Source of the DNA: an uncultured Candidatus Saccharibacteria bacterium
Lineage (GTDB): Bacteria; Patescibacteriota; Saccharimonadia; Saccharimonadales; JANWIN01
Direction of reading: 5' to 3'
Assembly (NCBI GenBank): GCA_964520375.1
Contig: CAZFNQ010000001.1
Coordinates: 5,842 to 59,047, forward strand
DNA: 53,206 bases
The position numbers and the translations under genes were made by a program. The notes below the pieces were generated by a model. That model did not search any database. It was given only the letters and a program-made list of their open reading frames with translations, and was not told the DNA's origin. Below, piece by piece: positions 2,732 to 47,788 of this stretch (its first letter is position 1; every line of letters starts with the position of its first letter).

Positions 2732-3172
2732 ATGGCTAAAACTGAACCTGCTATGGAGCAACCCCGTCCAAAAGTAGATGATGACATTGTCTATGGTTTA
2801 CGTATGGATCTGCGATCCGACCCCAGTATGGCTGATACAATTTTTAGACTCATCGCTAATGACCAGCCAACCTATACCCGACAGGGCATGTACATGGCTC
2901 AAGAACGTTCACACGGTGACCCGGTTCGTCAAGAAGGCTGGTTAGAAGGTTATGTAGTCGGTGCCGAAGCTCATCGCCGACAAGACACACGCTTGGCCAT
3001 TCAACAACGCAGCAATGAAATCTCCGAGCCGGTAGATTGGGATAATGTTACGCCGATAGAACGAGTAAGGAAACGGCGTTTTAAACCGATTAGGCTATGG
3101 CTTGGGGGAGTGGCAGCGGCTCAGCTTATTAATAAGAATAAGCCCAAATCAAAACCTTTGGAAGAAATTTAG
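2732..3172 (+). CDS. Hypothetical protein with a basic C-terminus and one predicted TM
   Basis: ORF with an ATG at 2732, 9 nt downstream of TGTTATATT (2714-2722). The listed GTG at 2681 is a less likely start. Confidence 0.45.
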   Translation: MAKTEPAMEQPRPKVDDDIVYGLRMDLRSDPSMADTIFRLIANDQPTYTRQGMYMAQERSHGDPVRQEGWLEGYVVGAEAHRRQDTRLAIQQRSNEISEPVDWDNVTPIERVRKRRFKPIRLWLGGVAAAQLINKNKPKSKPLEEI

Positions 3173-3609
3173 CGTTGACGTTGGTGGTGTCGCCGCAGTC
3201 CAGCCACTTTAAGCCGGACAGCGTGGCGATCCATTAAGCTTTGTGCTTGGCTAAGTTCAACTTTGTCCTTGGCCGCGCGGGCCAGCTGTTGAGCGCGGTC
3301 AAAAGCTTTCTGAGCCTCTTGCTCGTTAATCTCATCCTCGCGGTCGGCCTCATCGACCAACACCCGCACTTTGTTGTCAACGACTTCAATAGCTCCGCCG
3401 TTAGTGGCAAAATATTCAAGTTTGCTATCTGGGTCTTCAGGCCGTCGCCTGACAGCTATTACACCTGGCGCGGCCAAAGAAACCAGGGGAATGTGGTGTG
3501 GCAAAACGGCAATTTCACCATCAGGTGTTGGCAAAATAACTTCATAAACATCTTCACCGAATTTAGTTCCGTTGAGCGTAACTAGTTCAAAATGAATAAC
3601 ATCAGCCAT
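3169..3609 (-). CDS. atpC: F1 ATP synthase epsilon subunit
   Basis: N-terminal beta-sandwich signature (LVTLNG..EVILPTPDGEIAVLPHHIPLVS) plus a C-terminal helical hairpin, as the last gene of the atp operon. The ATG at 3609 overlaps the upstream stop as TGATG; a GTG at 3612 is also possible. Confidence 0.9.
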   Translation of the reverse strand: MADVIHFELVTLNGTKFGEDVYEVILPTPDGEIAVLPHHIPLVSLAAPGVIAVRRRPEDPDSKLEYFATNGGAIEVVDNKVRVLVDEADREDEINEQEAQKAFDRAQQLARAAKDKVELSQAQSLMDRHAVRLKVAGLRRHHQRQR

Positions 3610-4127
3610 CACTCATCTCTCTTTTGGCGCTTTTCAATTTCCGATACTAGTTCAGAGCCTTTGGGTGGCCAAACTTGAGCCAATGGTTCTTCTGGCTCGA
3701 TATATGTTCCATCCATCATACAAATGACTTCGCCTATATTTTTAGCTTTCGGATAAGTGCCTGACAACCATACATTAAATGCATCCGCCACTTTCGCGTG
3801 AGTATTAGTTATGGAATTGTCAAAAATCTCTTCGGGCTTTACCCCAGATGTAGGACGTGTCGATTTGTAAACTATATCTTCTAACGACTCTTTGGTGTCA
3901 AGCGTAGCAGCAACATGCTCTTTAATAATATCTGTTGTGAGAACTTCTGCTTCATCTCGCCGACGCATGGCATCGTTAATTGCAGGAGCAGGGAATTTTG
4001 GGTCATCAGATCTAAAGCCTAAGTGATTGGTTGGATCCCAAGTAGCGAAGTCAGCGATGTGACCGTCTGGCGGTCGATCGCCACTAATTTTGTAACCTTC
4101 TTCACCTGGTTCTAGTGGTTGAGCCAT
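3609..4127 (-). CDS. Unknown 172-aa protein inserted between atpD and atpC
   Basis: Same strand as the operon. Its ATG directly abuts the atpD TAG (TAGATG) and its TGA overlaps the atpC ATG. It has no TM and no recognisable motif. Confidence 0.6.
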   Translation of the reverse strand: MAQPLEPGEEGYKISGDRPPDGHIADFATWDPTNHLGFRSDDPKFPAPAINDAMRRRDEAEVLTTDIIKEHVAATLDTKESLEDIVYKSTRPTSGVKPEEIFDNSITNTHAKVADAFNVWLSGTYPKAKNIGEVICMMDGTYIEPEEPLAQVWPPKGSELVSEIEKRQKRDE

Positions 4128-5534
<1,407 letters not shown>

Positions 5535-6742: not shown

Positions 6743-8300
6743 TTTCTACTTTCTCCGCCTTAGTTTCTTGGCTCCTGTATTGTGAAGCTATAGAATTGGC
6801 AGTGTCGGTGATTAACTTCTTGATTTTATCGTCGGGTGCATCGCCTTTATTGAGCTCTACCATTTCGCTACCATGCTCACTATGTAATTGAGTCAATAAA
6901 TTAGCTTGGGCCTTTTTAACATTACTAAGCGGCACGGTGTCGAAGCTTCCTTCATTGGCAGCCATTAATATAGCGGTTTGTTCCCAAACACTAAGCGGCG
7001 AATACTGTGGTTGCTTAAGCAGCTCGGTTAGGCGTTGACCGCGTTCAATCCGGGCCTTAGTTTCCTCATCCAGATCAGTTGAAAACTGACTAAAGGCGGC
7101 AAGTTCACGGAATTGGGCCAGATTTAGTCTTAGTTGCCCGGCCACGCTTTTAACAGCTTTAGTTTGGGCGGCACCACCAACGCGAGATACACTCAGACCC
7201 ACCGAAATAGCCGGACGTATACCTTGATAAAACAAATCTGTTTCCATAAAGATTTGGCCATCGGTAATGGAAATAACGTTAGTCGGAATATAGGCGCTAA
7301 TGTCACCGGCTTGAGTTTCAATAATAGGTAGGGCAGTAAGCGAACCGGCTCCCAGCTTGTCACTTAACTTGGCTGCTCTCTCCAATAACCGTGAGTGTAA
7401 GTAAAAGACATCACCCGGATAAGCCTCTCGACCTGGCGGGCGACGCAGCAGGAGAGACATTTGGCGGTAAGCCGCAGCATGCTTGGATAGATCATCATAA
7501 ATAATCAGGGCATGTTTTTTATTGTCGCGGAAATATTCACCCATGGTGCAACCGGCATAAGGCGCCAGGTATTGCAGGCTTGCTGGGTCAGCAGCCGAAG
7601 TGGCGACTATAATAGTTTGCTCCATAACGCCTTCGCGCTTGAGCCGCTCGACTATACGGGCCACCTTGCTCAGCTTCTGGCCAATAGCCACATAAATGTT
7701 TATAACGCCAGTTTCTTGGCGACGCTGATTTATCATGGTGTCGACAGCCACGGCGGTCTTGCCAGTTTGGCGATCGCCAATTATTAGCTCACGCTGACCA
7801 CGGCCAATAGGCACCATTGAATCAATGGCAATCAATCCTGTCATTAGCGATTCATGCACACTGCGGCGATCTAGCACCCCAGGCGCAACTTGTTCTACTG
7901 GACTGGTTTGCTTGGTTTTAATTGGACCCTTGTCGTCCAATGGACGTCCCAGCGGATCAACCACCCGGCCGACTAGTTCAGGGCCGACCGGTACTTGTAA
8001 AATTTTGCCAGTTAAATGTACCTTAGCACCAGCACTGACAGTTGATTCCTCAGCCAAAAGCACGGCGCCAATTTCGTCTTCAGTTAGATTAAGAGCAAAA
8101 GCCGATATTTTGCTTCCTTCATTAGACTCAATTTCCAGCATCTCGGAAAAACCACAACCACTCAGCCCATAAATCCAGGCAATGCCATCACCGACGCGAG
8201 TGACTATGCCAACAGTCTCAACCTGCGGTGAGCGTTTCAGCTTTTCTATGGCTTCCCGGATATCGGCACTGAGTTCTTTGACTGATAAATCTTGTGCCAC
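6720..8300 (-). CDS. atpA: F1 ATP synthase alpha subunit with a short C-terminal extension
   Basis: Walker A GDRQTGKT and the motifs YDDLSKHA and [21 protein letters not shown]. Its 3' end overlaps the atpG start by 23 nt. Confidence 0.97.
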
Positions 8301-25639: not shown

Positions 25640-26329
25640 CTAAAATCTTTGGTTGGGTGGCATTTGGATGTTGCGACGGTCGTGCCGTCGGCGCAAAAAT
25701 AGCCATAGCCAGATTAATAGCCCTACAAAGATTGCTACCAAAGAAATAATAAGTATCCAGTGATTTGGTTTTTTCGTTGCCGCTGCAGCGGCAGGAGTTG
25801 GGGTTGTAGTGGAGGCTCCCAGCACTTTAAATGTAAAAGTTGCTTTGCCATTTTTAATAGCATTTAGAGTAATAGAAATATCATTTATGCCGTCACCATT
25901 TACATCAATTTGTTTGGTATCACCTACAAAAAAACGGAGTTTAATAGCGCCGGGACTAATGGTAAGGTCAACGTAGTTACTGGTAACTTTATTGATAGTT
26001 ATGCTATATCTGATAGTTTCGTTATTTGCGGTAACGTCAAAATATAATACTTGGCCGGCTTTTAATACCAGCTGCTGGCCATTAACAGAAAAAAAGTTGT
26101 CATAATTATTAAGCAAAATTAGGGAAGTGCTAGAGCTGGGAGTGCTAGAACTAGGTGAAGAACTAGATGGAGTTGAACTCGACCCAGAACAGCCTTGGCT
26201 ATATTTACAAGCACCGTAGTTGCCGCCGCCGTAAACTGCCGCCCAGGCAACTGGCTGCAAAACAAAAGCACAAACAATAAACACAGGAGCTAATAATCTG
26301 GTTATTTTGCCAAATGTCTTAATTGCCAT
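25640..26329 (-). CDS. Secreted protein with a Ser-rich linker and a C-terminal TM anchor
   Basis: Signal peptide ending AWA, an SSSTPSSSSPSSSTPSSS linker, a beta-rich body, then a C-terminal TM followed by RRRHDRR. Confidence 0.55.
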   Translation of the reverse strand: MAIKTFGKITRLLAPVFIVCAFVLQPVAWAAVYGGGNYGACKYSQGCSGSSSTPSSSSPSSSTPSSSTSLILLNNYDNFFSVNGQQLVLKAGQVLYFDVTANNETIRYSITINKVTSNYVDLTISPGAIKLRFFVGDTKQIDVNGDGINDISITLNAIKNGKATFTFKVLGASTTTPTPAAAAATKKPNHWILIISLVAIFVGLLIWLWLFLRRRHDRRNIQMPPNQRF

Positions 26330-26384
26330 TTACACAAGCGATTATAACATTTATACTAAGTCTAGAATTAAAAAAGGAGAGGGT

Positions 26385-26552
26385 ATGTTTGGTAAAACAG
26401 AAGATTTGGTCATAGTTCTGCTAATTATCTTGTTGCTATTTGGCGCTAAGAAGATTCCGGACTTGGCTCGCAGTATTGGCCAATCGGCCCGTGAGGTCAA
26501 AAAGGGCTTTAGTGGCGAAGACGAAGAAACTAGTTCTAAGAAGTCTAAGTAA
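26385..26552 (+). CDS. tatA: Twin-arginine translocase subunit TatA/E
   Basis: MFGKTEDLVIVLLIILLLFGAKKIPDLARSIG matches the TatA pattern. An AAGGAGAGG SD precedes the ATG at 26385. Confidence 0.88.
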   Translation: MFGKTEDLVIVLLIILLLFGAKKIPDLARSIGQSAREVKKGFSGEDEETSSKKSK

Positions 26553-26573: not shown

Positions 26574-27575
26574 GTGGCACCGTCACAAACATTTCATGAC
26601 CACATAAAAGAGCTCCGCCGTCGCATAATGTGGATAGTGCTGGCGATTGGCATAACCGCGGGTATCAGTTATGCACTGCGTGTTAGTCTTATTCGCATTT
26701 TGCAAAAACCGCTAGGAGCAACACTTTTTTACACTTCACCAGCCGGTAGCTTTAATTTTATTATAAAACTGTCGACTATTATTGGTTTATTTGTAGCTTT
26801 GCCAGTCATAATTTATCAGTTGCTGCGTTTTATTGAGCCAGCCTTACCAATAAATATTAAAAGAAGTACGATGTTTAAGTTAATATCGGCTTCGTTTTTG
26901 TTGGCGCTGGGTGGCATAGCTTTTGGTTATTTTTACATGGTGCCGATGTCACTACACTTTTTCGCCGGCTATTCCACGGATCAAATTAAACCGCTGATTT
27001 CGGCCAATGAGTATTTATCTTACTTGATGGGCAACTTGACTATCTTTGCCTTGATGTTTCAAATCCCCCTGGTCGTACTATTTATTAACTGGATTAAGCC
27101 TACCAGGCCGCGCAAGCTGCTGCGCTACCAGCGACACGTCATTGTCGGTTCGTTCGCATTAGCCGTGGTTTTGCCGTTTACTTATGATCCTATTTCGCAG
27201 TTTATTGTGGCCATACCAATTATAGTGCTGTTTTACTTATCAGTAATTTTGCTGTGGGCCGCGAATCGAGGCCGCATTTATCCCGGTGAGGCCAGCCCGG
27301 CCGTCAGCCCAATCTTGCCAACACCTCCGGCGCCCTACACTGAGCCAATGCTAGTGCCAGTATTGACTCCAACCATTAACAATAGACCGCGGTCTATTGC
27401 GGTGGAAGGCTTCGTTAGTAGGCCGGTCGGGGCACTACCCCGCCGCACCCAATATGCCAATTCCACCGAGCTACGCCAACAGGTGGCTGGACAGCCAAAG
27501 CCAAGCCACAAATCCTCGCCAAAGCCCAGGCTGTCCATTGATGGCATTAGTCCGCCTTTGACATCTTCAGCATAA
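26574..27575 (+). CDS. tatC: Twin-arginine translocase subunit TatC with a ~90-aa Pro-rich C-terminal extension
   Basis: F.DHI.ELRRR start and a six-TM layout. GTG start with an AAGGAG SD. Confidence 0.85.
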   Translation: MAPSQTFHDHIKELRRRIMWIVLAIGITAGISYALRVSLIRILQKPLGATLFYTSPAGSFNFIIKLSTIIGLFVALPVIIYQLLRFIEPALPINIKRSTMFKLISASFLLALGGIAFGYFYMVPMSLHFFAGYSTDQIKPLISANEYLSYLMGNLTIFALMFQIPLVVLFINWIKPTRPRKLLRYQRHVIVGSFALAVVLPFTYDPISQFIVAIPIIVLFYLSVILLWAANRGRIYPGEASPAVSPILPTPPAPYTEPMLVPVLTPTINNRPRSIAVEGFVSRPVGALPRRTQYANSTELRQQVAGQPKPSHKSSPKPRLSIDGISPPLTSSA

Positions 27576-27663: not shown

Positions 27664-27864
27664 ATGGACAAACAAAAAAACCTACAAAAACTTTTCAACA
27701 AACCTATGGATAGAAAACAGTTCCTGGGTCATGTGGGCGCCGGGGCTTTAATGGTTATGGGAATAAGCGGTCTGCTAAAAAGCCTACTGGACTATGGCAG
27801 CCAACCGCGGCAGCAGTCTGAGGTTGGTTATGGTTCATCATCATATGGAGGCGGAAAGAAGTGA
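27664..27864 (+). CDS. Small (66 aa) protein with a Tat-signal-like N-region (DRKQFLGHVGAGALMVMG) and a Gly/Ser-rich tail
   Basis: ORF with a GGAAG SD-like element. It has an R-K pair followed by FL and a hydrophobic h-region. Confidence 0.45.
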   Translation: MDKQKNLQKLFNKPMDRKQFLGHVGAGALMVMGISGLLKSLLDYGSQPRQQSEVGYGSSSYGGGKK

Positions 27865-27907: not shown

Positions 27908-30900
27908 ATGGCACGTTTGCCAACACCTGGAGGTGATGACGGAACTTGGGGGGATATCCTCAATGAGTTCTTAGATGTCGGCCATAATAGTGATGGCACT
28001 CTAAAAGACGTAGTAAAGACAAGTGGTAATCAGACAGTAGCTGGGACAAAGACTTTTAGCGCATCTCCACAGGTTCCAACACCCAATAGTGCAGCTGATG
28101 CTACCACTAAAGCCTATGTCGATGCCACGGCTGGGTTGGGCACTACTGGTGCTACAGGCGCAACAGGTCCGGCCGGCCCCGCAGGAGCGACCGGTAGCGG
28201 CTCTACTGGTGCTACCGGGCCAGCAGGCAGTGCCGGCGGCCAAGGTAGTACTGGCGCTACCGGTGTCGGCAGCCAAGGCAGTACTGGCGCTACCGGTGCC
28301 GGCTCTGCGGGAGCAACGGGTGCAACAGGAGCAACTGGCACAACTGGCGGATCTGGAGCAACTGGGGCAACCGGGGCTGGTAATACAGGTGCAACGGGGC
28401 CGACGGGCTCAACCGGCCCACTAGGCAATGTCGGGGGTGATAGCTTTACGTTTACTTATGACAGTTCCAGCACAGCCGATAGCGATCCAGGCAACGGTAA
28501 GCTTAAATTTGATAACGCCACCATTGGCTCAGTTACTAAAATTTATATTGATTTGCTGGAAAGCAACGGCAGCAGCGTTACGGCTTGGCTGGATAGTTTA
28601 AATAACGGCTTCCTTAAACTTTTTAGAAATTCCAACCCAGCCAACTTTATATTGTTTACCCTTAACTCGGTCACGACTACTTCCGGCTATAGAAAATTAA
28701 ACGTTACTTACCTAGACAACACCGGCACACTTAGTACTACAACTGGTGACACTGTAGTAACATTTGCAACCACAGGGCCTACTGGGCCGCAAGGTGCAAC
28801 CGGCAGCACGGGTGGTCAAGGCTCAACAGGAGCAACTGGGTCCAGCGGAACAGCGGGCGCTACGGGCTCAATAGGAGCAACTGGTGCCGGCAGTACTGGT
28901 GCCACTGGACCAACAGGCAGCACGGGTGGTCAAGGCTCAACAGGAGCAACTGGTGCCGGAACGACAGGAGCCACCGGCCCAACAGGCTCAACAGGCGGCA
29001 GCGGAGCTACTGGGGCGACCGGTCCGCAGGGCACATCAGGCGGCTCAACAACCTTTGTAGGTGATTGGGCAGATGCTACGCCTTATGCTTCAGCTGATCA
29101 GGTAACTCATAATGGTTCTAGTTACTCCTGTACTTCAGCTCATACTTCCAGTCCCTCGACTGAACCTGGGGTTGGGGGTAGCTGGCAAACCAAGTGGCAA
29201 TTGGCAGCCCAGAAGGGCGACACTGGTGTAACCGGGGCAACTGGTGCTGTAGGTGCCACTGGCGTTGGAGCAACTGGAGCAACTGGAGCAGGCGGCAGCG
29301 CCGGAGCGGCTGGCTCTACTGGTGCAACTGGCGCAGGAGGAGGGACTGGGGTTACCGGGGCTACCGGCCCACACGGCCAGTTTGGCGGTAATTCATTCAG
29401 CTTTACTTATGACGATTCAGCGACTACAGACAGCGACCCGGGTAATGGCAAGTTTAAGTTTGACAATGCCACTGTTAGCTCAGTCACCAAGATATATATT
29501 GACTTGCTTGATTCCGGCGGTACAACCATAACCACCTGGTTGGACAGCCTAGACGACATTACTAACAGTGTTACCGGCAGCCTAAAACTATTCAGCATTG
29601 CCGACCCCACACTGTGGGCTGTCTTTAACCTTACATCGGTTACTTCGGCAACCGGTTATCGTAAACTTAATGTTACTTACGTTGCATCAAACTCAACGCT
29701 GGCCACTACAGCTTCAGACACAGTTGTCAGCTTTGCAGTAGCCGGCGCAGCTGGTGCCACAGGCTCAACTGGTAGTGGCGGTGCCGACGGGGCAACGGGT
29801 GCCACCGGTGCAGGTGGATCAGCTGGAGCCGCCGGAGCAACCGGGGCCACGGGCGCTGGTGGTGCCAGTGGAGCTACCGGCCCAAACGGAGCGAGTGGCG
29901 CCACCGGACCGCAAGGCAATACCGGTGGTGATAGCTTTACGTTTACTTATGACAATTCCAGCACAACTGATGCCGACCCTGGTAATGGCAAGCTAAAACT
30001 TAATAACGCAACCGTTTCGTCCGTCACCAAAATCTTTGTTGATTTGCTGGACAGCAATAGCGCATCGGTTACAAATTGGCTAGACAACCTCAACGGCGGC
30101 ACAGTCAAGCTGTTCAATAATTCTGCGCCAACTAATTTTGCAATCTTCACGTTAACTTCAGTAACCTCAGCAACTGGATACCGAAAGCTAAACGTAGCCT
30201 ATTTAGCAGATAACGGTACCTTGGGTACCGGAACCGGTGATATGGTGGTAACATTCGCACCGCAAGGCGCTACGGGGGCCACTGGGCCTCAAGGCGCTAC
30301 AGGTACAACCGGAGCTACTGGTACAACTGGCGGTGCCGGATCCACAGGAGCAACAGGACCCTCCACCGTAGCTGATAACGTTTTTACGCTACAAGACGAT
30401 GGTGATGCTACTAAGCAAGGACAGTTCCAGCTGTCTGGGGTTAGTGCTGGCTCAACTAAGACGCTAACCTGGCCAAATGCTAATGACACAATAGTTGGCA
30501 AAGCTACCACAGATACCTTTACCAACAAAACATTTGATACGGCAGGGACAGGAAATGTCCTTCAAATTAATAGCACAACCGTTTCTGATAAGACCGGCAC
30601 GGGTAAAGTCGTCCTGGATACGTCACCTACCTTAGTTACACCTGCCGTGGGTGCAGCCACAGGAACATCATTGGTCCTATCATCCTTCCTAAACGAGGCC
30701 AAGGGTGCCGATATTGCTTCTGCGACGACCACAGATATTGGGGCAGCGACCGGTAACTATGTACACGTTACCGGAACTGTAACTATTACTGGACTAGGTA
30801 CAGTACAGGCCGGAACCCGTAGGATAGTTAAATTCACTGGCGCCTTAACTCTGACTCACAACGCCAGCAGCTTGATTCTGCCAGGTTCGGCCAATATAAC

Positions 30901-32240: not shown

Positions 32241-32468
32241 ATGGTTAATAACGTTCAAGCGGCACTAAACTTAATAGATCAGAATATTGCCAATCTAAAT
32301 GGTACCCGCCAATCCCATATGGAACTTCAAGAGGCCGTTGCGATTTTACAAAACTTAATTGATAAAACTATAGAAAATGCTAAAAATCCAAAGACTGTAG
32401 AAAATAATAAAACTACGCCAGAAACTGCCGCGGTGGATAAACCTAAAACCGAAAAGAAGAAAGTCTAA
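32241..32468 (+). CDS. Small (75 aa) helical, Lys-rich protein between the two fibre genes
   Basis: An AAAGGG SD precedes the ATG, and its stop lies 5 nt before the fibre-2 ATG. The N-terminal half has a heptad-like helical character. Confidence 0.5.
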
Positions 32469-32473
32469 AAAAT

Positions 32474-35422
32474 ATGGCTCGACTGCCAACACCTGGAGGT
32501 GATGATGGGACTTGGGGGGATATCCTCAATGAGTTCTTAGATGTCGGCCATAATAGTGATGGCACACTTAAGGGTGTAGTTAAGACTAGTGGTAATCAGA
32601 CCGTAGGCGGGACAAAGACTTTTAGCTCATCACCACAGGTTCCAACTCCTAACAGTGCGGATGATGCTACTACTAAAGCCTATGTCGATGCCACGGCCGG
32701 GGTAGGAGCTAGCGGTCCGGCCGGATCAACTGGTGCCACTGGGCCAGCTGGTAGCGACGGCGGCCAGGGCAGCACAGGAGCAACTGGTTCGGCTGGTAGT
32801 GCCGGCGGCCAGGGTAGTACCGGAGCAACGGGACCGCAAGGCTTTGATGGTTTCGATGGTGCCACTGGCGTACAAGGAGCCACTGGTTCTGGTGGTGCCA
32901 CTGGTAGTCAAGGCAGTACTGGAGCCACAGGCGTTGGAAGCACAGGAGCGACTGGATCTGTTGGGGCTAGCGGGGCGACCGGCCCTAGGGGTTACGCTGG
33001 CGGTGACACGTTTACCTACACATACGACAACTCTAGCACGGCTGACTCTGATCCCGGAGCTGGTAATTTTAAGTTTGACAACGCTACGATTTCATCTGTC
33101 ACTAAAATCTTTGTAGATTTACTAGATAGCAATGGTACCACCGTTACTAACTGGCTGGCTAATATGGGTGGCGGTGTTGTTAAGCTATTCAATAACTCCG
33201 ATCCAACTAAGTTTGCCATCTTCGCAGTTGACTCTATTACAGCTGTAGGCGGTTATACCAAACTCAACGTTACATACACTACTAGCGCGGGGACGCTAGG
33301 AACTGCTGCCGGTGACAGCGTTATTACTTTTGCGCCACCAGGACCGACTGGCCCTCCGGGTAACGCCAGTACCCAAGGTGCAACTGGCGCCACAGGCCCA
33401 GTTGGAGCCGACGGTGCGACCGGCGCCACTGGTGCAGGCGGTAGCGCTGGCTCAGCTGGTCCAACTGGGGCCAGCGGGGCAACGGGACCAACTGGATCAG
33501 TTGGAGCGGCAGGTACAACTGGTGCGACAGGTTCGGCTGGTAGCACGGGCAGAGACTCTGGCCTTAAGTATACTTATTCGACTGATACAGCTAATAACGA
33601 TCCGGGTAGTGGTAAGATTAAGTTTAATTCAGCCACGCTGGCATCTATTACTACCTTACGCATCAGTGAGACTGATGGCGATAGTAACGATATAGCTACA
33701 CTTATCCAGACTTGGGATGATAGTACTACCAGCTCGGTCAGGACCACTATTACAATGGTCAAAGATGGTTCACCAGGCAATGTCCTGGTATTACAAGTAG
33801 CTGGTGCCATTACTGACAACGGCACCTGGGACAACTGTACAGTTTCATATGTAACTTCTTCCGGTTCTTTTACCAACAACGATACTGTCAAATTGTTCTT
33901 TGCCAGGACTGGTGATCAGGGGGCTACGGGATCGACCGGGGCGACCGGCAGCGCCGGGCCCTCTACAGTAGCCGACGATGTCTTTACCCTGCAAGACAAC
34001 CTAGACTCTACCAAGCAGTTGCAGTTCCAGCTGGCTAATATCGGGAGTGGCTTAACCCGGACTATTACCGTTCCTAACAATAACATTATCCTGCCAACCA
34101 CAACCCAACCGATTACGTTTAACGGGACCACAACCGGTAGGGTCTATGCTCTACCTGATGCCAACACTGAGCTTTTGAGCACAACGATAATCGCTAACGT
34201 TGGTAATAAAACGTTTCTTAATACCAATTCTATGTCCATTAAGGATAATTTATTAACCCTGCAAGACAATAATGACACTACCAAACAGGCTCAATTTGAT
34301 CTATCTGGCATCACTACCGGCACTACCCGAACCTACACATTGCCTGATCGTTCGGATACGCTAGTTGACCTCGGCAGTGCCCAAACCCTGACTAATAAAA
34401 CCATCTCTGAGTCGTCGGTTACGAATCTAACAACCGATCTAGCCGACGTCCAAACTCAGACCGCTCTGCAAGCCGCTCAGATTCAATCAAGGGTGCAGGC
34501 TGATTCCGGGCACTATGTATGCTCAGGCTTGGGGTTGACCGCAAACGCCACTCCTACAAAGCTCAACATGGCCGCCGGTACTGTGTTCATGACTACCACT
34601 GAACTGAATGTTGCGGCACAGTCGGCGATTTCGACAACCATTGCCAGCATGGCGGATGCCACAAACCCGCGGTGGGTGATAGTAGAACTGGACTCATCCA
34701 CAGTTGTTCAATTCAACCAGGGCACCGCTGCTGCCTCCCCAGCCTTCCCGGCGTTTACCGCCGCACGAACGCCACTAGGGTTTTTGTATATCCCAGCCAA
34801 TGCCACAAACGTCGACACCTTGCTCACAACTAATAACGGCAATGCAAAACTAATTGACGCAAGGGTGGTCTACAATATTCTTCCGGCGCGGCGACTCACT
34901 TCCAATACCACTACGACTACAGTAAATAATCCCGCTACTCCGACAACTATGCTCAGTAGCCCGATAACTTTGCCAGGTGATTCTCTCAATGTCGGTGATA
35001 TTTTCAAGGTAACAGCCGGTGGAAAGTTTACGCCCGGCGCAACAGCAGATACCACGGTCCAAATTCAGTTTAGCATCGGTGGCGTCGTTTATTTCGATTA
35101 CACTACAGTGAACTTAACTAAGGCAGGTAATACTACTGACACCCGCCCCTTCCGTTTTGAGTTCGAGTTTGTACCGTTTAGCATAGGGACAACCGCCGTG
35201 CTGAAGTGGTCGGGACAATTCGTTATTGCCGCGGTTGCAACCAGCAATGTGGCTGGATTGGGTGGTGGCACCTCCGGCAGTATGGCTGTAACCAATGGGC
35301 AGACGGGGTTTATAGATAGCACCAATAATCTGGGTATTGACTTGCTGATGGCACGTGGTGCATCGGCGACGAACTCTAGCTTTGTTTTGCGAGAATTTTC
35401 ACTAACGAAATATCCGGCCTAA
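32474..35422 (+). CDS. Second (982 aa) collagen-like / tail-fibre-like protein, paralogue of fibre 1 with a different C-terminal domain
   Basis: Its first ~75 aa are nearly identical to fibre 1. It has collagen tracts, module copies D and E, two TLQD..TK..F.LS repeats and a unique ~330-aa C-terminal domain. Confidence 0.85.
32699..32998 (+). repeat. Collagen-like tract 1 of fibre 2
   Basis: [30 protein letters not shown]...GATGPRGYA. Confidence 0.85.
32999..33334 (+). repeat. Module copy D ([10 protein letters not shown]...DSVITFA)
   Basis: Same skeleton as copies A-C: [36 protein letters not shown]...[14 protein letters not shown]...GYTKLNVTY. Confidence 0.8.
33335..33547 (+). repeat. Collagen-like tract 2 of fibre 2
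   Basis: [30 protein letters not shown]...GSAGSTG. Confidence 0.8.
33548..33904 (+). repeat. Module copy E, divergent ([13 protein letters not shown]...DTVKLFFA)
   Basis: Retains Y.Y..D....[16 protein letters not shown]...I...D........I..W.D and a terminal DTV..FA, but the core is strongly diverged. Confidence 0.6.
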
Positions 35423-35426
35423 GCTT

Positions 35427-36671
35427 ATGATTTCACAACTAGCAATTATTGGAGACTCCCTATCGACTGGTTTCCCGACTGGCTCGGCTATGGGAGATGG
35501 TCGACAAGGAGGTTGGGACGAACTCCTGGCTGAAGGTTTGGCGAATATTTCGGGACTGGGGCCGATGTTGAGCTCTGGTTATCGCGGTGTTGCCAATGGC
35601 ATTCAAAGTTTTCGCGAATGGTCATATGCCGGAACGTGGACGACAGTAACAAACGCAAATCTTTGGGACAAGCTTCCCTATGGCTTCGGAAAAACCGCCA
35701 GTGGGGCTGGTAGTATTGCGACTTTTACCCGTCCGATAGAGTGGCGCACACCCGTTGGGTTTAAGCTATACTGGGTGGACTTATCCACTGGCGGTAATTG
35801 GCAATACCGAATTGACGGCGGTTCATGGATAAACATGGGCCAGACCTTAGCGCATGATAGTAAAATCTGTGCCTTCTATGTGCCAACGCCCTTCACCGAT
35901 ACAATTGATATTCGTGCTTTTGATGGTACCAGCAGTGCTGGCTGTTTCCCTGCCGGTATTGAACTATTTTGGAGTGATCCGACTGCACCGGGAGCAAGCG
36001 GGCTCATCGTCCATCATTATGCCGTGGGCTCACAAAACCTACACAAGCTTTTCACTTCTATTGCCGGGGACAGGATGGCAATAATGGATTCCGTAAAATT
36101 AGGCACCGGATCGCCAATTGTTAATGCTGCCAACATCTGTACCCTGATGATGCACATCAATGACGTGAAGGATTTTGGCAACACCACAACCTGGGCGAAC
36201 GATCTTACATCGTTCAACTCTCGCGTATCACCACTCGGTCCTGTCGCATTTATGAATCCTTATGAGACAGTCCCAACCACCTTTAACGCGACGACTCAAA
36301 GCGACTACCGCGCCCAAACCAAGACAACTGCTGCTGGATTCGCTACGCCCGCCAAGGTACTTGATCTTTATGATTTGTGGACCGCGAACGGCTGGGGCAC
36401 AGGCGTCGGTACGCAAAACGATGTCATCCAGGCTGCAGGGTTAACCTTCGACAATATACACGAGACCTTGGCCGGACATCTTGACCTCTACTTTCGTATC
36501 TACTGGTGGATTCGTACTCAAATCCTATCCGGGCTCAATGATAATACGCCCAGCAGATACCCGATGGCCGCCAAGCAAACAGCAATACAATATTCTGGCA
36601 AGCAAGCCGGAGTGCAATATTCGGCTGGTGCACCCATAACGGTGTCAACTCGAGGCCAACCTACAAACTAA
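35427..36671 (+). CDS. SGNH/GDSL-family hydrolase (esterase/deacetylase-like) without a signal peptide
   Basis: Block I IIGDSLSTG, an HIND block-III-like element and a DNIH (DxxH) block V. The ATG lies 4 nt after the fibre-2 stop. Confidence 0.65.
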   Translation: MISQLAIIGDSLSTGFPTGSAMGDGRQGGWDELLAEGLANISGLGPMLSSGYRGVANGIQSFREWSYAGTWTTVTNANLWDKLPYGFGKTASGAGSIATFTRPIEWRTPVGFKLYWVDLSTGGNWQYRIDGGSWINMGQTLAHDSKICAFYVPTPFTDTIDIRAFDGTSSAGCFPAGIELFWSDPTAPGASGLIVHHYAVGSQNLHKLFTSIAGDRMAIMDSVKLGTGSPIVNAANICTLMMHINDVKDFGNTTTWANDLTSFNSRVSPLGPVAFMNPYETVPTTFNATTQSDYRAQTKTTAAGFATPAKVLDLYDLWTANGWGTGVGTQNDVIQAAGLTFDNIHETLAGHLDLYFRIYWWIRTQILSGLNDNTPSRYPMAAKQTAIQYSGKQAGVQYSAGAPITVSTRGQPTN

Positions 36672-36730: not shown

Positions 36731-37888
36731 ATGAAGTTTCGCTTTCATGTTATTAGTTTGCCACATACTCAAACAACAGCTGAGTATACGGCCTGTGCCT
36801 ACACCCAAAAGGTCATAAAGTTTTGCCGGATGATGAAATCGCTAGGGCACGAGGTATATCTGTATGCTTCAGAAGAAAATGAAGCGCCGTGCGATGAGCT
36901 TATTACCATTGTGACTAAAAAAGAACAACGTAAATGGTTTGGCGAATACGATTTCAAACAGCAATTCTTTAATATTGACTGGAACGAGACATTGCCGCAC
37001 TGGGTTATCCCAAATGCCCGCGCAATAACGGAGATTAAGAAGCGTGCAAAGGCGCGGGATTTTATTTGCATCATTGGCGGAGTTTGCCAAAAACAAATTT
37101 CCGATGGCCTGCCAGCCATGATGAGCGTGGAGTATGGCATTGGCTACTACGGCGTATACGCGCCGTATCGGGTCTACGAAAGCTACGCCCAGATGCACTA
37201 TGTCCACGGCCAGCTGCAAAACGATAATGGTCGGTCGTTTGACGCTGTCATACCCAACTATTTTGACCCTAAGGACTTTCCGTATAAAGCCAAAAAAGAT
37301 GACTTTTACCTATATATTGGCCGGATGATTAAGCGCAAAGGCCCGGACATGGCCGTAGAAGTCACCAGGCGGATTGGCGCCAAACTAGTTATGGCGGGCC
37401 AGGGCGTGAAAAAGATTGAAGGTAACAGGATTATTGCTGACGAGATAACTGTTGAGGGTGATCATATCAAACACATGGGACATGCTGATATTAAGCAGCG
37501 CGGACAGCTAATGAGCCGGGCTAAAGCCGTGTTTGTTATGTCCTATTATCTTGAACCGTTTGGTGGCACCTCAATTGAACCTTTATTTTGTGGCACACCG
37601 GTTATAACTAGCGATTGGGGCGCCTTCCCGGAGAATATCCCGCATGGGCTGGCCGGTTACCGGGCGCGCACCTTGGGAGAGGCTATCTGGGCCGCTCAGA
37701 ATGTCGATAAATTAAATCCCGCCAAAATCCGTAAATACGCTGTAGATAATTTCAGCCTAGATAGAGTGAAGTACTTGTACCAAGCCTACTTTGAGCAGCT
37801 CAACACCTTATGGGACGAAAACGGCTGGTACAGCAACTGGCACAGGGGTGTTTCTAAGTACCATCGCTACACCAGGTATTATCCCTAA
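36731..37888 (+). CDS. GT-B fold glycosyltransferase (GT4-like)
   Basis: The C-terminal motif EPFGGTSIEPLFCGTPVITSDWGAFPE fits the E(x7)E GT4/GT1 signature. Confidence 0.7.
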   Translation: MKFRFHVISLPHTQTTAEYTACAYTQKVIKFCRMMKSLGHEVYLYASEENEAPCDELITIVTKKEQRKWFGEYDFKQQFFNIDWNETLPHWVIPNARAITEIKKRAKARDFICIIGGVCQKQISDGLPAMMSVEYGIGYYGVYAPYRVYESYAQMHYVHGQLQNDNGRSFDAVIPNYFDPKDFPYKAKKDDFYLYIGRMIKRKGPDMAVEVTRRIGAKLVMAGQGVKKIEGNRIIADEITVEGDHIKHMGHADIKQRGQLMSRAKAVFVMSYYLEPFGGTSIEPLFCGTPVITSDWGAFPENIPHGLAGYRARTLGEAIWAAQNVDKLNPAKIRKYAVDNFSLDRVKYLYQAYFEQLNTLWDENGWYSNWHRGVSKYHRYTRYYP

Positions 37889-46546: not shown

Positions 46547-47788
46547 ATGGATCCACAAAACCCACAACACCAAGCTAATCATCCCCATCAGCCACCCAGT
46601 GATGCCCGTGCTAAGGAAAAAGCCCAAGCTGATAGTGCCGCTAATTTAATTAGACAAAGGCTAGATTCACTGTATGAGGAAGAGCCGGCTGCTAAAGCTG
46701 AGGCACGTGAGGCCGAGCAAGTCACGCACCGCTCCAAGCACCAAAACTTTATGCACAAGTTAAGTGAATCCGGCAAATCGCTAGCCGAAATACAATCAGC
46801 CTGGCATGAATATTACGCCGGTCTGCCGGATAAAGAGAAGTACGAGGTTTGGGATGAGTTCTATAAAAGTAACGGCCAGCAGTCACATTTTGCTACAGCT
46901 CAAGCTCACCAACCCCAGGATAGTGGTGCGCAGGTGGTGGAAACATCCCCGCCAGAAACAGTCAGTCATCACAAACCTGCCAAGCACCACAAGCATCAGC
47001 CTTCTCACGCAACACGATCTGTATCTGACGTTAAACACCAGCTGATGAGCGACTCAAGGCCTCATCGTAAACTTAAAGCTAAACAACATTTTCAATCGTT
47101 ACTGTTTGGTTTGGGGCTAGGTTCAGCCGTAGTACTAATATTACTGTTTGGTTTTTTCAACGAGCGCTTTATCGCTCCATTTATAACACCAAGCCGACAT
47201 GTCAGTTCCACGCCGATTATTACAGACCCGAACAATGACAAAGTCGATCCAGCCCCAAGAGTTATTATTCCAAAAATTAATGTTGAAGCCCCGGTGGTAT
47301 ATAACGAGCCCTCAATCGACGAACAGGCTGTTCAAAAAGCCTTAGAGCGGGGTGTTTTGCACTATGCTACCACACCAAATCCGGGCGAGAGAGGTAACGC
47401 GGTTATCTTTGGTCACTCCAGTAGCAATATCTTAAACCATGGCAAAGCAAAGTTTGCCTTTGTACTGTTGAGTTGGTTGGATAAAGGTGATATTTTTTAC
47501 CTAAATAAAGATGGCAAGCGCTATGTTTACAAAATTTACAAGAAAATGATCGTCAATCCCCAGGACGTAGCAGTAATTGGTCAACAGGACAAACCGGACA
47601 CGGCTACGCTAATAACCTGTGATCCACCAGGCACTTCGGTTCACAGGTTGGTTATAGTCGGTCAGCAAATCAGCCCCAATCCGGCCAGTAATACCGCTAG
47701 TACGGCTATAAAAAGCAATGCTCTTCCAGCCATTATTCCTAGCAACTCAATAACCCTTTGGCAAAGAATTAAAGACTGGTTTAATTAA
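46547..47788 (+). CDS. Sortase-family transpeptidase with a long disordered N-terminal region and a TM anchor
   Basis: Catalytic-type motifs GNAVIFGHSS and TLITCDPPG (TLxTC), plus a downstream Arg in SVHRLVIVG. Confidence 0.8.
   Translation: MDPQNPQHQANHPHQPPSDARAKEKAQADSAANLIRQRLDSLYEEEPAAKAEAREAEQVTHRSKHQNFMHKLSESGKSLAEIQSAWHEYYAGLPDKEKYEVWDEFYKSNGQQSHFATAQAHQPQDSGAQVVETSPPETVSHHKPAKHHKHQPSHATRSVSDVKHQLMSDSRPHRKLKAKQHFQSLLFGLGLGSAVVLILLFGFFNERFIAPFITPSRHVSSTPIITDPNNDKVDPAPRVIIPKINVEAPVVYNEPSIDEQAVQKALERGVLHYATTPNPGERGNAVIFGHSSSNILNHGKAKFAFVLLSWLDKGDIFYLNKDGKRYVYKIYKKMIVNPQDVAVIGQQDKPDTATLITCDPPGTSVHRLVIVGQQISPNPASNTASTAIKSNALPAIIPSNSITLWQRIKDWFN

Follow-up and report, generated by a model that had tools for sequence, protein, structure and literature searches.

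Two adjacent genes in a 53,206-nucleotide (nt) stretch of DNA from an uncultured Candidatus Saccharibacteria bacterium (GenBank assembly GCA_964520375.1; the whole stretch is referred to below as the window) encode long, phage-fibre-like proteins, fibre 1 and fibre 2, which open with closely similar N-terminal domains of 76 residues that we term heads. We consider it likely that the two genes are tandem paralogues whose heads were made alike by gene conversion, and that the heads share a partner, most likely the twin-arginine translocation (Tat) export route together with a 66-amino-acid (aa) mini-protein encoded beside fibre 1.

The 5′ ends of the two genes (positions 27908–28140 and 32474–32706) align without gaps and with 26 mismatches over 233 nt (88.8% identity), and their longest perfect stretch measures 56 nt (27944–27999, matching 32510–32565), exactly as given in the original prediction made from this DNA. 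That prediction called the two ends near-identical, which overstates an identity of 89% and a synonymous divergence (dS) of ~0.5. The 77 codons compared are separated by 18 synonymous and 5 non-synonymous differences (D34G, A45G, A52S, A63D, and L77V). Similarity sets in at the ATG; the 300 nt upstream are ~30% identical, the level of random sequence. A repeat search of the window also detects the two ends, as direct repeats of 279 nt with 84% identity. Chance certainly does not account for such a 5′ repeat in 53 kb; the 56-nt run by itself is merely mildly unusual, since a clean run of this length has a probability of ~0.012–0.015 given 26 mismatches.

In fibre 1 the head is joined by collagen-like tracts, three modules of ~115 aa each, a CBM5/12 insert, a shaft, and a C-terminal part rich in Gly, with the ~115-aa module repeated within the protein; fibre 2 has the same head, collagen, and modules and a different distal ~330 aa. 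The prediction had further described a shared N-terminus followed by unrelated sequence. Unrelated sequence is found, in the distal ~330–450 residues only, but homology extends well past residue 75: BLASTP aligns the two proteins at 65% aa identity through approximately residue 340, covering the head, a collagen tract, and a ~115-aa module, and a GPSTVAD(N/D)VFTLQD junction is common to both.

The genes themselves appear older than the resemblance of their heads. In G001, a genome of the same genus, a 1426-aa protein (C19a) aligns with fibre 1 over its full length (57% over 1468 aa), and a second head-bearing gene (C19b) lies 4.3 kb after it. In G003, which belongs to another genus, tatC, a 1790-aa fibre, a 1080-aa fibre, an SGNH-like gene, and a glycosyltransferase gene follow one another in the same order as in the window. 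This conserved tandem order implies that the duplication predates the homogenization, and on these sequence comparisons the two fibre genes are old tandem paralogues.

Fibres 1 and 2 share 89% nt and 95% aa identity in the head; for fibre 1 and its orthologue C19a the values are 67% and 73%, and either fibre is 73–78% identical in nt to the other G001 copies. Divergence of the head is thus non-uniform, with two copies in our genome at 89% and each at 67–78% against any same-genus copy, which supports the suggestion in the original prediction of a shared N-terminus with swappable distal cassettes. Codon choice separates the head from what follows it: where the two proteins carry the same residue, the codon is also the same at 52 of 70 sites in codons 1–76 vs 61 of 171 in codons 77–354 (Fisher p = 4.6e-8). 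By the Nei–Gojobori method, the proportion of synonymous differences (pS) between the fibres is 0.36 in the head (dS 0.49; non-synonymous divergence, dN, 0.024) and 0.75–0.79 over the remaining shared sequence. The head of fibre 1 and that of C19a have a pS of 0.79, and unconverted tandem pairs have values of 0.79 (G001:C19) and 0.71 (G003). Given that the same protein constraint applies in all of these comparisons, the low value in our pair reflects history rather than selection. Elsewhere the 56-nt stretch is 68–82% identical, with synonymous changes in every genome, which excludes a general nucleotide-level element. In a tree of heads (222 nt, 10 rows), fibres 1 and 2 are nearest neighbours, and an approximately unbiased (AU) test on a clade of fibre 1 with its orthologue gives p = 0.047.

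We therefore find a bounded tract, from the ATG to about codon 77, in which paralogues are closer than orthologues at synonymous sites, as is characteristic of gene conversion. These sequence comparisons point to a conversion-type event limited to the head that followed the split from G001 and is now old (dS ~0.5), and the genome does encode RecA; the 56-nt run may represent a later, shorter tract or chance. The fibre 1 head is 85% identical in aa to that of C19b and 73% to that of its own orthologue. Its greater closeness to the downstream-type G001 copy suggests transfer from fibre 2 to fibre 1, and on this basis conversion probably ran in that direction. Ongoing recombination between the two genes is possible; searches of metagenome contigs with an exact 44-mer and with a degenerate peptide-coding pattern, both drawn from the 56-nt run, gave no match, and fibre 2 is recorded on one contig only.

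The head has two parts, a 33-residue leader (residues 1–33) and a BppL_N-like motif (residues 34–76), which in an alignment of homologues are joined by a linker of 0–13 aa. The second part follows the pattern VVxxSGxxTxxGxKTF…DAxxKxYVD and is the sole part of the head that matches actinophage proteins. Its PF18338 match spans 18 residues (35–52) and exceeds the gathering cut-off of 25.8 bits when the head is searched alone (33.5 bits for fibre 1, 28.5 for fibre 2); with full-length proteins, the score of fibre 2 is 25.6 bits and fibre 1 does not appear among the matches. The leader has no match in Pfam, NCBIfam, PHROGs, or PDB, and a PDB sequence search with the leader profile and a 78-aa head returned chance matches only (E ~1). 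Its consensus from residue 1 is M-A-R-L-P-x-P-G-x-D-D-G-T-W-G-x-[IV]-L-N-x-[FY]-L-x-V-x-H-N-x-D-G-[TS]-L-K. Both fibres fit this consensus at residues 1–33 and are the top profile matches in their genome (84 and 83 bits), where just these two genes carry the head.

A 36-aa leader profile retrieves 6680 protein clusters at 50% identity, 5177 of them at E <1e-10, and the leader stands at residue 1 in at least 144 of the best 150 library matches, on proteins of all lengths. Behind it are found collagen, CBM5/12, pectate-lyase-fold and other beta-helix, GDSL, laminin-G, FGE-sulfatase, and S74 bodies. The expectation that the same N-terminus would occur on other proteins was likewise borne out, by 106 matches with at least 10 different C-terminal Pfam types and by the 6680 clusters. 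Among species-representative genomes, a scan built on an 8-row alignment, which samples [SG]DDGTWGD variants only, found this narrow variant mostly in Saccharibacteria, as well as in a few other Patescibacteria and Chloroflexota-type or Dormiibacterota metagenome-assembled genomes and in one Mycolicibacterium. The latter copy, in M. agri (locus L082, 3001–3859), is a short leader-coding stretch followed by a 251-aa open reading frame (ORF) in another frame; this may represent a copy, in a cultured actinobacterium, that has undergone a frameshift, and it is uninformative for the analysis. Five IMG/VR contigs (G+C content, GC, 41–69%) carry the leader on tail proteins, for instance in the order tape measure, Dit, leader protein, which makes the leader common to virions and cells. 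Between them, two of these phage modules (L041, 3098–9272; L038, 331–9617) show this order and portal and major head genes upstream. In Saccharimonadales, leader genes sit in ordinary chromosomal contexts.

Related genomes hold up to 13 leader copies each, and some show tandem pairs resembling ours. Two tandem genes of G001 (C26; 664 and 808 aa) share a 1145-nt block that is 100% identical, beginning 85 nt upstream of the start codon and ending inside a collagen tract. Two tandem genes of another genome, G033 (510 and 556 aa, a sulfatase gene after each), share a 784-nt block, also 100% identical, with its start 2 nt ahead of the ATG. In neither pair does blastn find similarity past the block. 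The blocks lie at 2838–3982 and 7549–8693 of L032 (G001:C26) and at 4306–5089 and 7492–8275 on the reverse strand of L034 (G033:C3); past them, the 3′ parts and the downstream genes (SGNH-like, sulfatases) are unrelated. Such blocks are either products of very recent conversion or capture, or assembly artefacts. A third pair, in G015, is 92% identical over 393 nt. Over 67 leader copies from 17 genomes, aa identity is 75.7% (0.757) within genomes vs 63.2% (0.632) between them, and the nearest nt neighbour of a copy lies in the same genome for 41 of the 67. Several genomes have a leader signature of their own (VSLN..DGT[IL]Q in G040, PGSDNGTWG in G018, and QDGGTWGNLLNEYL in G015; loci L094–L119), as would follow if every copy in a cell co-evolved with a single partner.

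The distribution of the leader suggests what this partner could be. We scored leader and TatC in 151 Saccharimonadales genomes, comprising 150 drawn evenly at a completeness of ≥90% and the genome under study (88% complete). Both were present in 59 and neither in 85, leaving one genome with the leader only and six with TatC only (Fisher p = 9e-34, kinship not corrected for). In the sole leader-only genome the mini-protein adjoins the leader gene, so tatC is probably unassembled there. Among 41 relatives, TatC occurs in all 23 leader-positive genomes and is absent from 16 of the 18 leader-negative ones, and the four genera that include both states (g11, g38, g41, and g43) give four concordant contrasts for leader and TatC. 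The genes are also often physically close: of 53 genomes, 28 have a leader gene no more than 5 kb from tatC, and in 18 the distance is at most 1.5 kb. With tblastn, tatA, tatC, mini-protein, and leader gene are found in this succession at many loci, two contigs of 63% GC among them. TatC of the window has a Pro/Ser-rich C-terminal extension of ~100 residues past the 208-position Pfam core, and TatC frames with an extension, reaching 424 aa, are frequent across Saccharimonadales.

The mini-protein combines a DRKQFL motif with a hydrophobic (h-) region and ends 43 nt upstream of fibre 1. Its family is marked by a conserved R-[RK]-x-F-L motif, by a hydrophobic stretch rich in Gly and Ala, and by a GYGSSxYGG(K/R) tail at the C-terminus. 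In many loci a homologue immediately precedes the leader gene, and homologues occur in 66 of the 151 genomes, tracking TatC. Against NF038009, a "Tat system-associated protein" family, the mini-protein scores 64 bits, with a cut-off of 100. Homologues were noted in L033, L044, L046, L058, L067, L070, L073, L154, and L155. In L154 and L155 (63% GC; labelled Acidimicrobiales and Pseudonocardiales), leader-bearing pectate-lyase-fold proteins adjoin the mini-protein, with TatA and a prepilin-like N_methyl protein also present in L155. Both loci adjoin a type IV secretion system coupling protein, alongside a relaxase in L154 and a serine recombinase in L155, which suggests that the leader module would also travel on conjugative elements of high-GC bacteria. 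A stricter twin-arginine scan of our genome, which is weak evidence, picked the 66-aa protein and very few other candidates, and did not pick the fibres; a looser scan gave mostly false positives and was not used. The leader is acidic, with one Arg and no hydrophobic stretch, and so does not resemble a canonical Tat substrate. A soil Saccharibacterium genome has only four predicted Tat substrates (PMC6031116).

Genome context thus points to the Tat export system, over a phage baseplate, as the partner of the head. Most economically, the shared head would be a Tat-dependent export or anchoring module, perhaps riding piggy-back on the mini-protein. We propose that, once this lineage had parted from its sister species, non-reciprocal recombination would have overwritten the head of one gene with that of the other, the donor probably being the downstream gene, and that selection would keep the heads alike because both fibres need the same partner. 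Judging from genome context, that partner would be the Tat route and the mini-protein just upstream, by which folded, signal-less trimers could be exported piggy-back or anchored. We infer both this docking or export role, which is well motivated, and the host-binding role of the fibres. A more specific proposal, possible but held tentatively, casts the leader as the cargo tag of a so far undescribed route for export and display: folded, signal-less trimers of phage type would pass through TatAC on the mini-protein, acting as a detached Tat signal, and might be anchored by it; these reduced genomes would keep Tat mainly for this purpose, and conversion would keep all fibres compatible with their single carrier.

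A number of observations weigh against this interpretation. The head tree is poorly resolved and mostly unresolved over its 222 columns, which is why we rely on synonymous-site counts, and the AU test on the clade of fibre 1 and its orthologue is borderline. Comparison within the genus rests on one genome, G001, in which C19b is cut by a contig end. A dS of ~0.5 between the heads marks an old event and is not evidence of present recombination. The fully identical blocks of G001 and G033 come from metagenome-assembled contigs, and the similarity of leaders within genomes could stem from lineage-specific gene birth. The link to Tat consists of correlation and adjacency. Presence of the mini-protein goes with TatC generally, since three of the six TatC-only genomes have it, and neither the translations of the fibres (for Tat or Sec) nor the stricter genome motif scan (for Tat) revealed a signal on them. 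An AlphaFold2 model of the 81-aa head from 22 sequences was uninformative (predicted local distance difference test score, pLDDT, 52.9). Finally, the leader on tail proteins of the five viral contigs must dock to a virion.

Two other histories could yield similar heads on divergent bodies. Were protein-level purifying selection the only force, the head would simply be the most constrained part of the proteins, and no DNA would have been exchanged. The very low dN of the head (0.024) agrees with this, as does the position of the 56-nt run, over the residues that the family conserves most, but synonymous sites are spared in our pair only (pS 0.36) and saturated in the orthologues and in the G001:C19 and G003 pairs, and in every other genome the 56-nt segment has synonymous changes. 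We judge selection alone to be quite improbable. Alternatively, one of the two genes could be a recent chimeric birth (cassette capture), in which the neighbour's 5′ end was copied and joined to a body that was either older or imported. The identical blocks of G001:C26 and G033 end sharply, with unrelated 3′ parts and downstream genes behind them, and the G001:C26 block takes in 85 nt of upstream DNA, all of which such a birth would explain. In our pair, G001 and G003 each hold a positional counterpart of either gene, and beyond the head the two genes remain homologous at an old level of divergence; both bodies were therefore already in place. Although chimeric birth and conversion lead to the same outcome and are indistinguishable in the present data, we regard the former as unlikely.

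The remaining alternatives concern what the fibres are and how their repeat is used. A prophage remnant would have left tail fibres behind, whose head once docked to a baseplate and has no cellular role now. The fibre proteins do match PHROG tail fibres, the head includes a BppL_N motif, a signal peptide is lacking, and viral contigs carry leader proteins after tape measure and Dit or in a head–tail module. Against such a remnant, searches of our genome (88% complete) found no tape measure, portal, major head (capsid), or Dit family, the frames are intact with a low dN/dS, some genomes hold up to 13 copies, and co-occurrence with Tat is near perfect. The locus is moreover syntenic between genera beside tatC and the glycosyltransferase gene, and does not qualify as a virion-protein module, being flanked by ATP synthase, cyo oxidase, tat, glycosyltransferase, Nramp, and ABC genes. 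The fibre genes are chromosomal and not within a phage, and we consider descent from a prophage without present function highly improbable. Least probable in our assessment, and scarcely credible, is programmed switching, in which the repeats would recombine often, through deletion or hybrid formation, to change the expressed distal domain in the manner of antigenic variation. Direct repeats 4566 nt apart in one operon, a RecA encoded in the genome, and the perfect 5′ blocks of other genomes would suit it; yet a perfect match of 56 nt within a remainder that is 86% identical makes a poor substrate, no recombinase or invertase gene lies nearby, both genes are complete, each with its own start, and the metagenome contig scans, which matched nothing, gave no hybrid allele.

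The window is bacterial chromosome of Saccharimonadales type, from an assembly of 610 kb in 46 contigs, and named homologues come from Candidatus Saccharimonadales. Housekeeping genes flank the fibre locus, and the window as a whole carries an F-type ATP synthase, a cytochrome bo-type (cyo) oxidase, a sigma factor, tatA, tatC, Nramp, an ABC exporter, a sortase, glutamyl-tRNA synthetase (GluRS), and three tRNAs. The genes at the fibre locus run in the order tatA, tatC, mini-protein, fibre 1, a 75-aa ORF, fibre 2, an SGNH-like gene, and a family-1 glycosyltransferase gene (Table 1). For the 75-aa ORF, library searches gave no family match and the other loci compared held no homologue. SGNH/GDSL-like homologues come after the fibre genes in G001 and G003 as well. 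The glycosyltransferase is 86–88% identical in aa in G001 and G003, as against 31–57% for the neighbouring fibres, and may glycosylate them. The sortase gene (413 aa; 46547–47788) lies 11 kb downstream of the cluster. Promoter and terminator scans gave a signal at chance level.

Table 1. Coordinates of the fibre locus and of the sub-features of the two fibre genes within the window
Feature	Position	Strand	Basis or remark
tatA	26385..26552	+	Likely ATG start inside frame 26307-26552; translation MFGKTEDLVIVLLIILLLFGAKKIP…; tblastn synteny
tatC, 333 aa, Pro-rich C-terminal extension	26574..27575	+	PF00902 match; tblastn synteny
66-aa Tat-signal-like mini-protein (…MDRKQFLGHVGAGALMVMGISGLL…GYGSSSYGGGKK), immediately before fibre 1	27664..27864	+	NF038009
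Fibre gene 1, 1439 aa	27908..32227	+	Full-length orthologue in G001
Fibre 1 5′ end (N-terminal domain, codons 1-77)	27908..28140	+	Ungapped 88.8% vs 32474-32706
Leader of fibre 1, 33 residues	27908..28006	+	Consensus from 101 homologues
56-nt perfect run, fibre 1 (codons 13-31)	27944..27999	+	
BppL_N-like sub-module of fibre 1, residues 34-76 (…DATTKAYVD)	28007..28135	+	PF18338 33.5 bits
75-aa helical ORF between fibre genes	32241..32468	+	Stop 5 nt before fibre 2 ATG
Fibre gene 2, 982 aa	32474..35422	+	
Fibre 2 5′ end, partner of fibre 1 5′ end	32474..32706	+	
Leader of fibre 2, 33 residues	32474..32572	+	
56-nt perfect run, fibre 2	32510..32565	+	
BppL_N-like sub-module of fibre 2	32573..32701	+	PF18338 28.5 bits
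SGNH/GDSL-like protein, 414 aa, after fibre 2	35427..36671	+	IIGDSLSTG motif
Glycosyltransferase family 1, closes conserved cluster	36731..37888	+	PF00534; phrog_3408 7.5e-95

Gene conversion is known to homogenize bacterial paralogues, for example the tuf genes and the opa and pil loci. Our pair resembles these cases of concerted evolution in that paralogues are closer than orthologues within a bounded tract, synonymous sites included. It differs in that the tract covers only a putative module for docking or export, at the very 5′ end, and the remainder diverges freely. A collagen-like adhesin anchored through LPXTG, of the Scl1/Scl2 kind (NF038329/NF038330), was also considered and rejected, with scores of 61–70 bits against cut-offs of 325–400 and neither a signal peptide nor LPXTG.

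Phage receptor-binding proteins, such as lactococcal BppL and the tailspikes of Klebsiella phages (PMC12692247), likewise join a short conserved N-terminus to very diverse C-terminal domains. The likeness extends to features of trimeric fibres (collagen, beta-helix, and DUF5907 repeats) and to breakpoints just after the conserved head. In contrast to those proteins, the fibre genes here are chromosomal, vertically inherited, and outside a structural module, no relative of the 33-residue leader is found in PHROGs, Pfam, or the PDB, and their presence is tied to Tat genes. A cellular parallel is offered by the mosaic adhesive trimer (MAT) fibres of Bdellovibrio bacteriovorus, also a bacterium-dependent cell that encodes many phage-fibre-like trimers (Caulton et al. 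2024, PMC10769870). One end of a MAT fibre is conserved and serves to retain it on the predator, the other is diversified, and the N-terminus consists of a signal peptide and then a beta-rich domain of ~130 aa (PMC10769870). Going by this description, our fibres are set apart by the lack of a signal peptide, by a 76-aa head composed of a 33-aa leader and a 43-aa motif, and by the link to Tat.

With respect to export, the closest comparison is hitchhiker co-export through Tat, in which a signal-less folded protein is encoded beside a signal-bearing partner (HybO/HybC; PaoABC, Lee et al. 2014, PMC4273604). At our locus, the 66-aa protein upstream of fibre 1 is a signal-bearing partner encoded alongside, and the putative likeness also covers adjacency to Tat genes. 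Unlike in the known systems, the putative carrier is a mini-protein with little beyond a signal peptide and the GYGSSxYGG tail, and the known cargoes are redox enzymes, not fibres. Our literature search found no paper linking Saccharibacteria, phage-type fibres, and Tat.

Cultivated Saccharibacteria and other Patescibacteria live attached to host bacteria, with type IV pili and unnamed adhesins as the known players (PMC10633639, PMC12206443). How Patescibacteria recognize their hosts is largely an open question. New in this work are the synonymous-site proof of conversion, the pairs with perfect blocks, and the table of leader and TatC across 151 genomes. The analysis defines an N-terminal module that heads more than 5000 protein clusters and has no name in any domain library. 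It describes a chromosomal, phage-fibre-like family that evolves as phage receptor-binding proteins do, with a head kept uniform by recombination and bodies that change freely. The tie between head and Tat over the 151 genomes offers a concrete lead, open to testing, on the route by which fibres without a signal could arrive at the cell surface.

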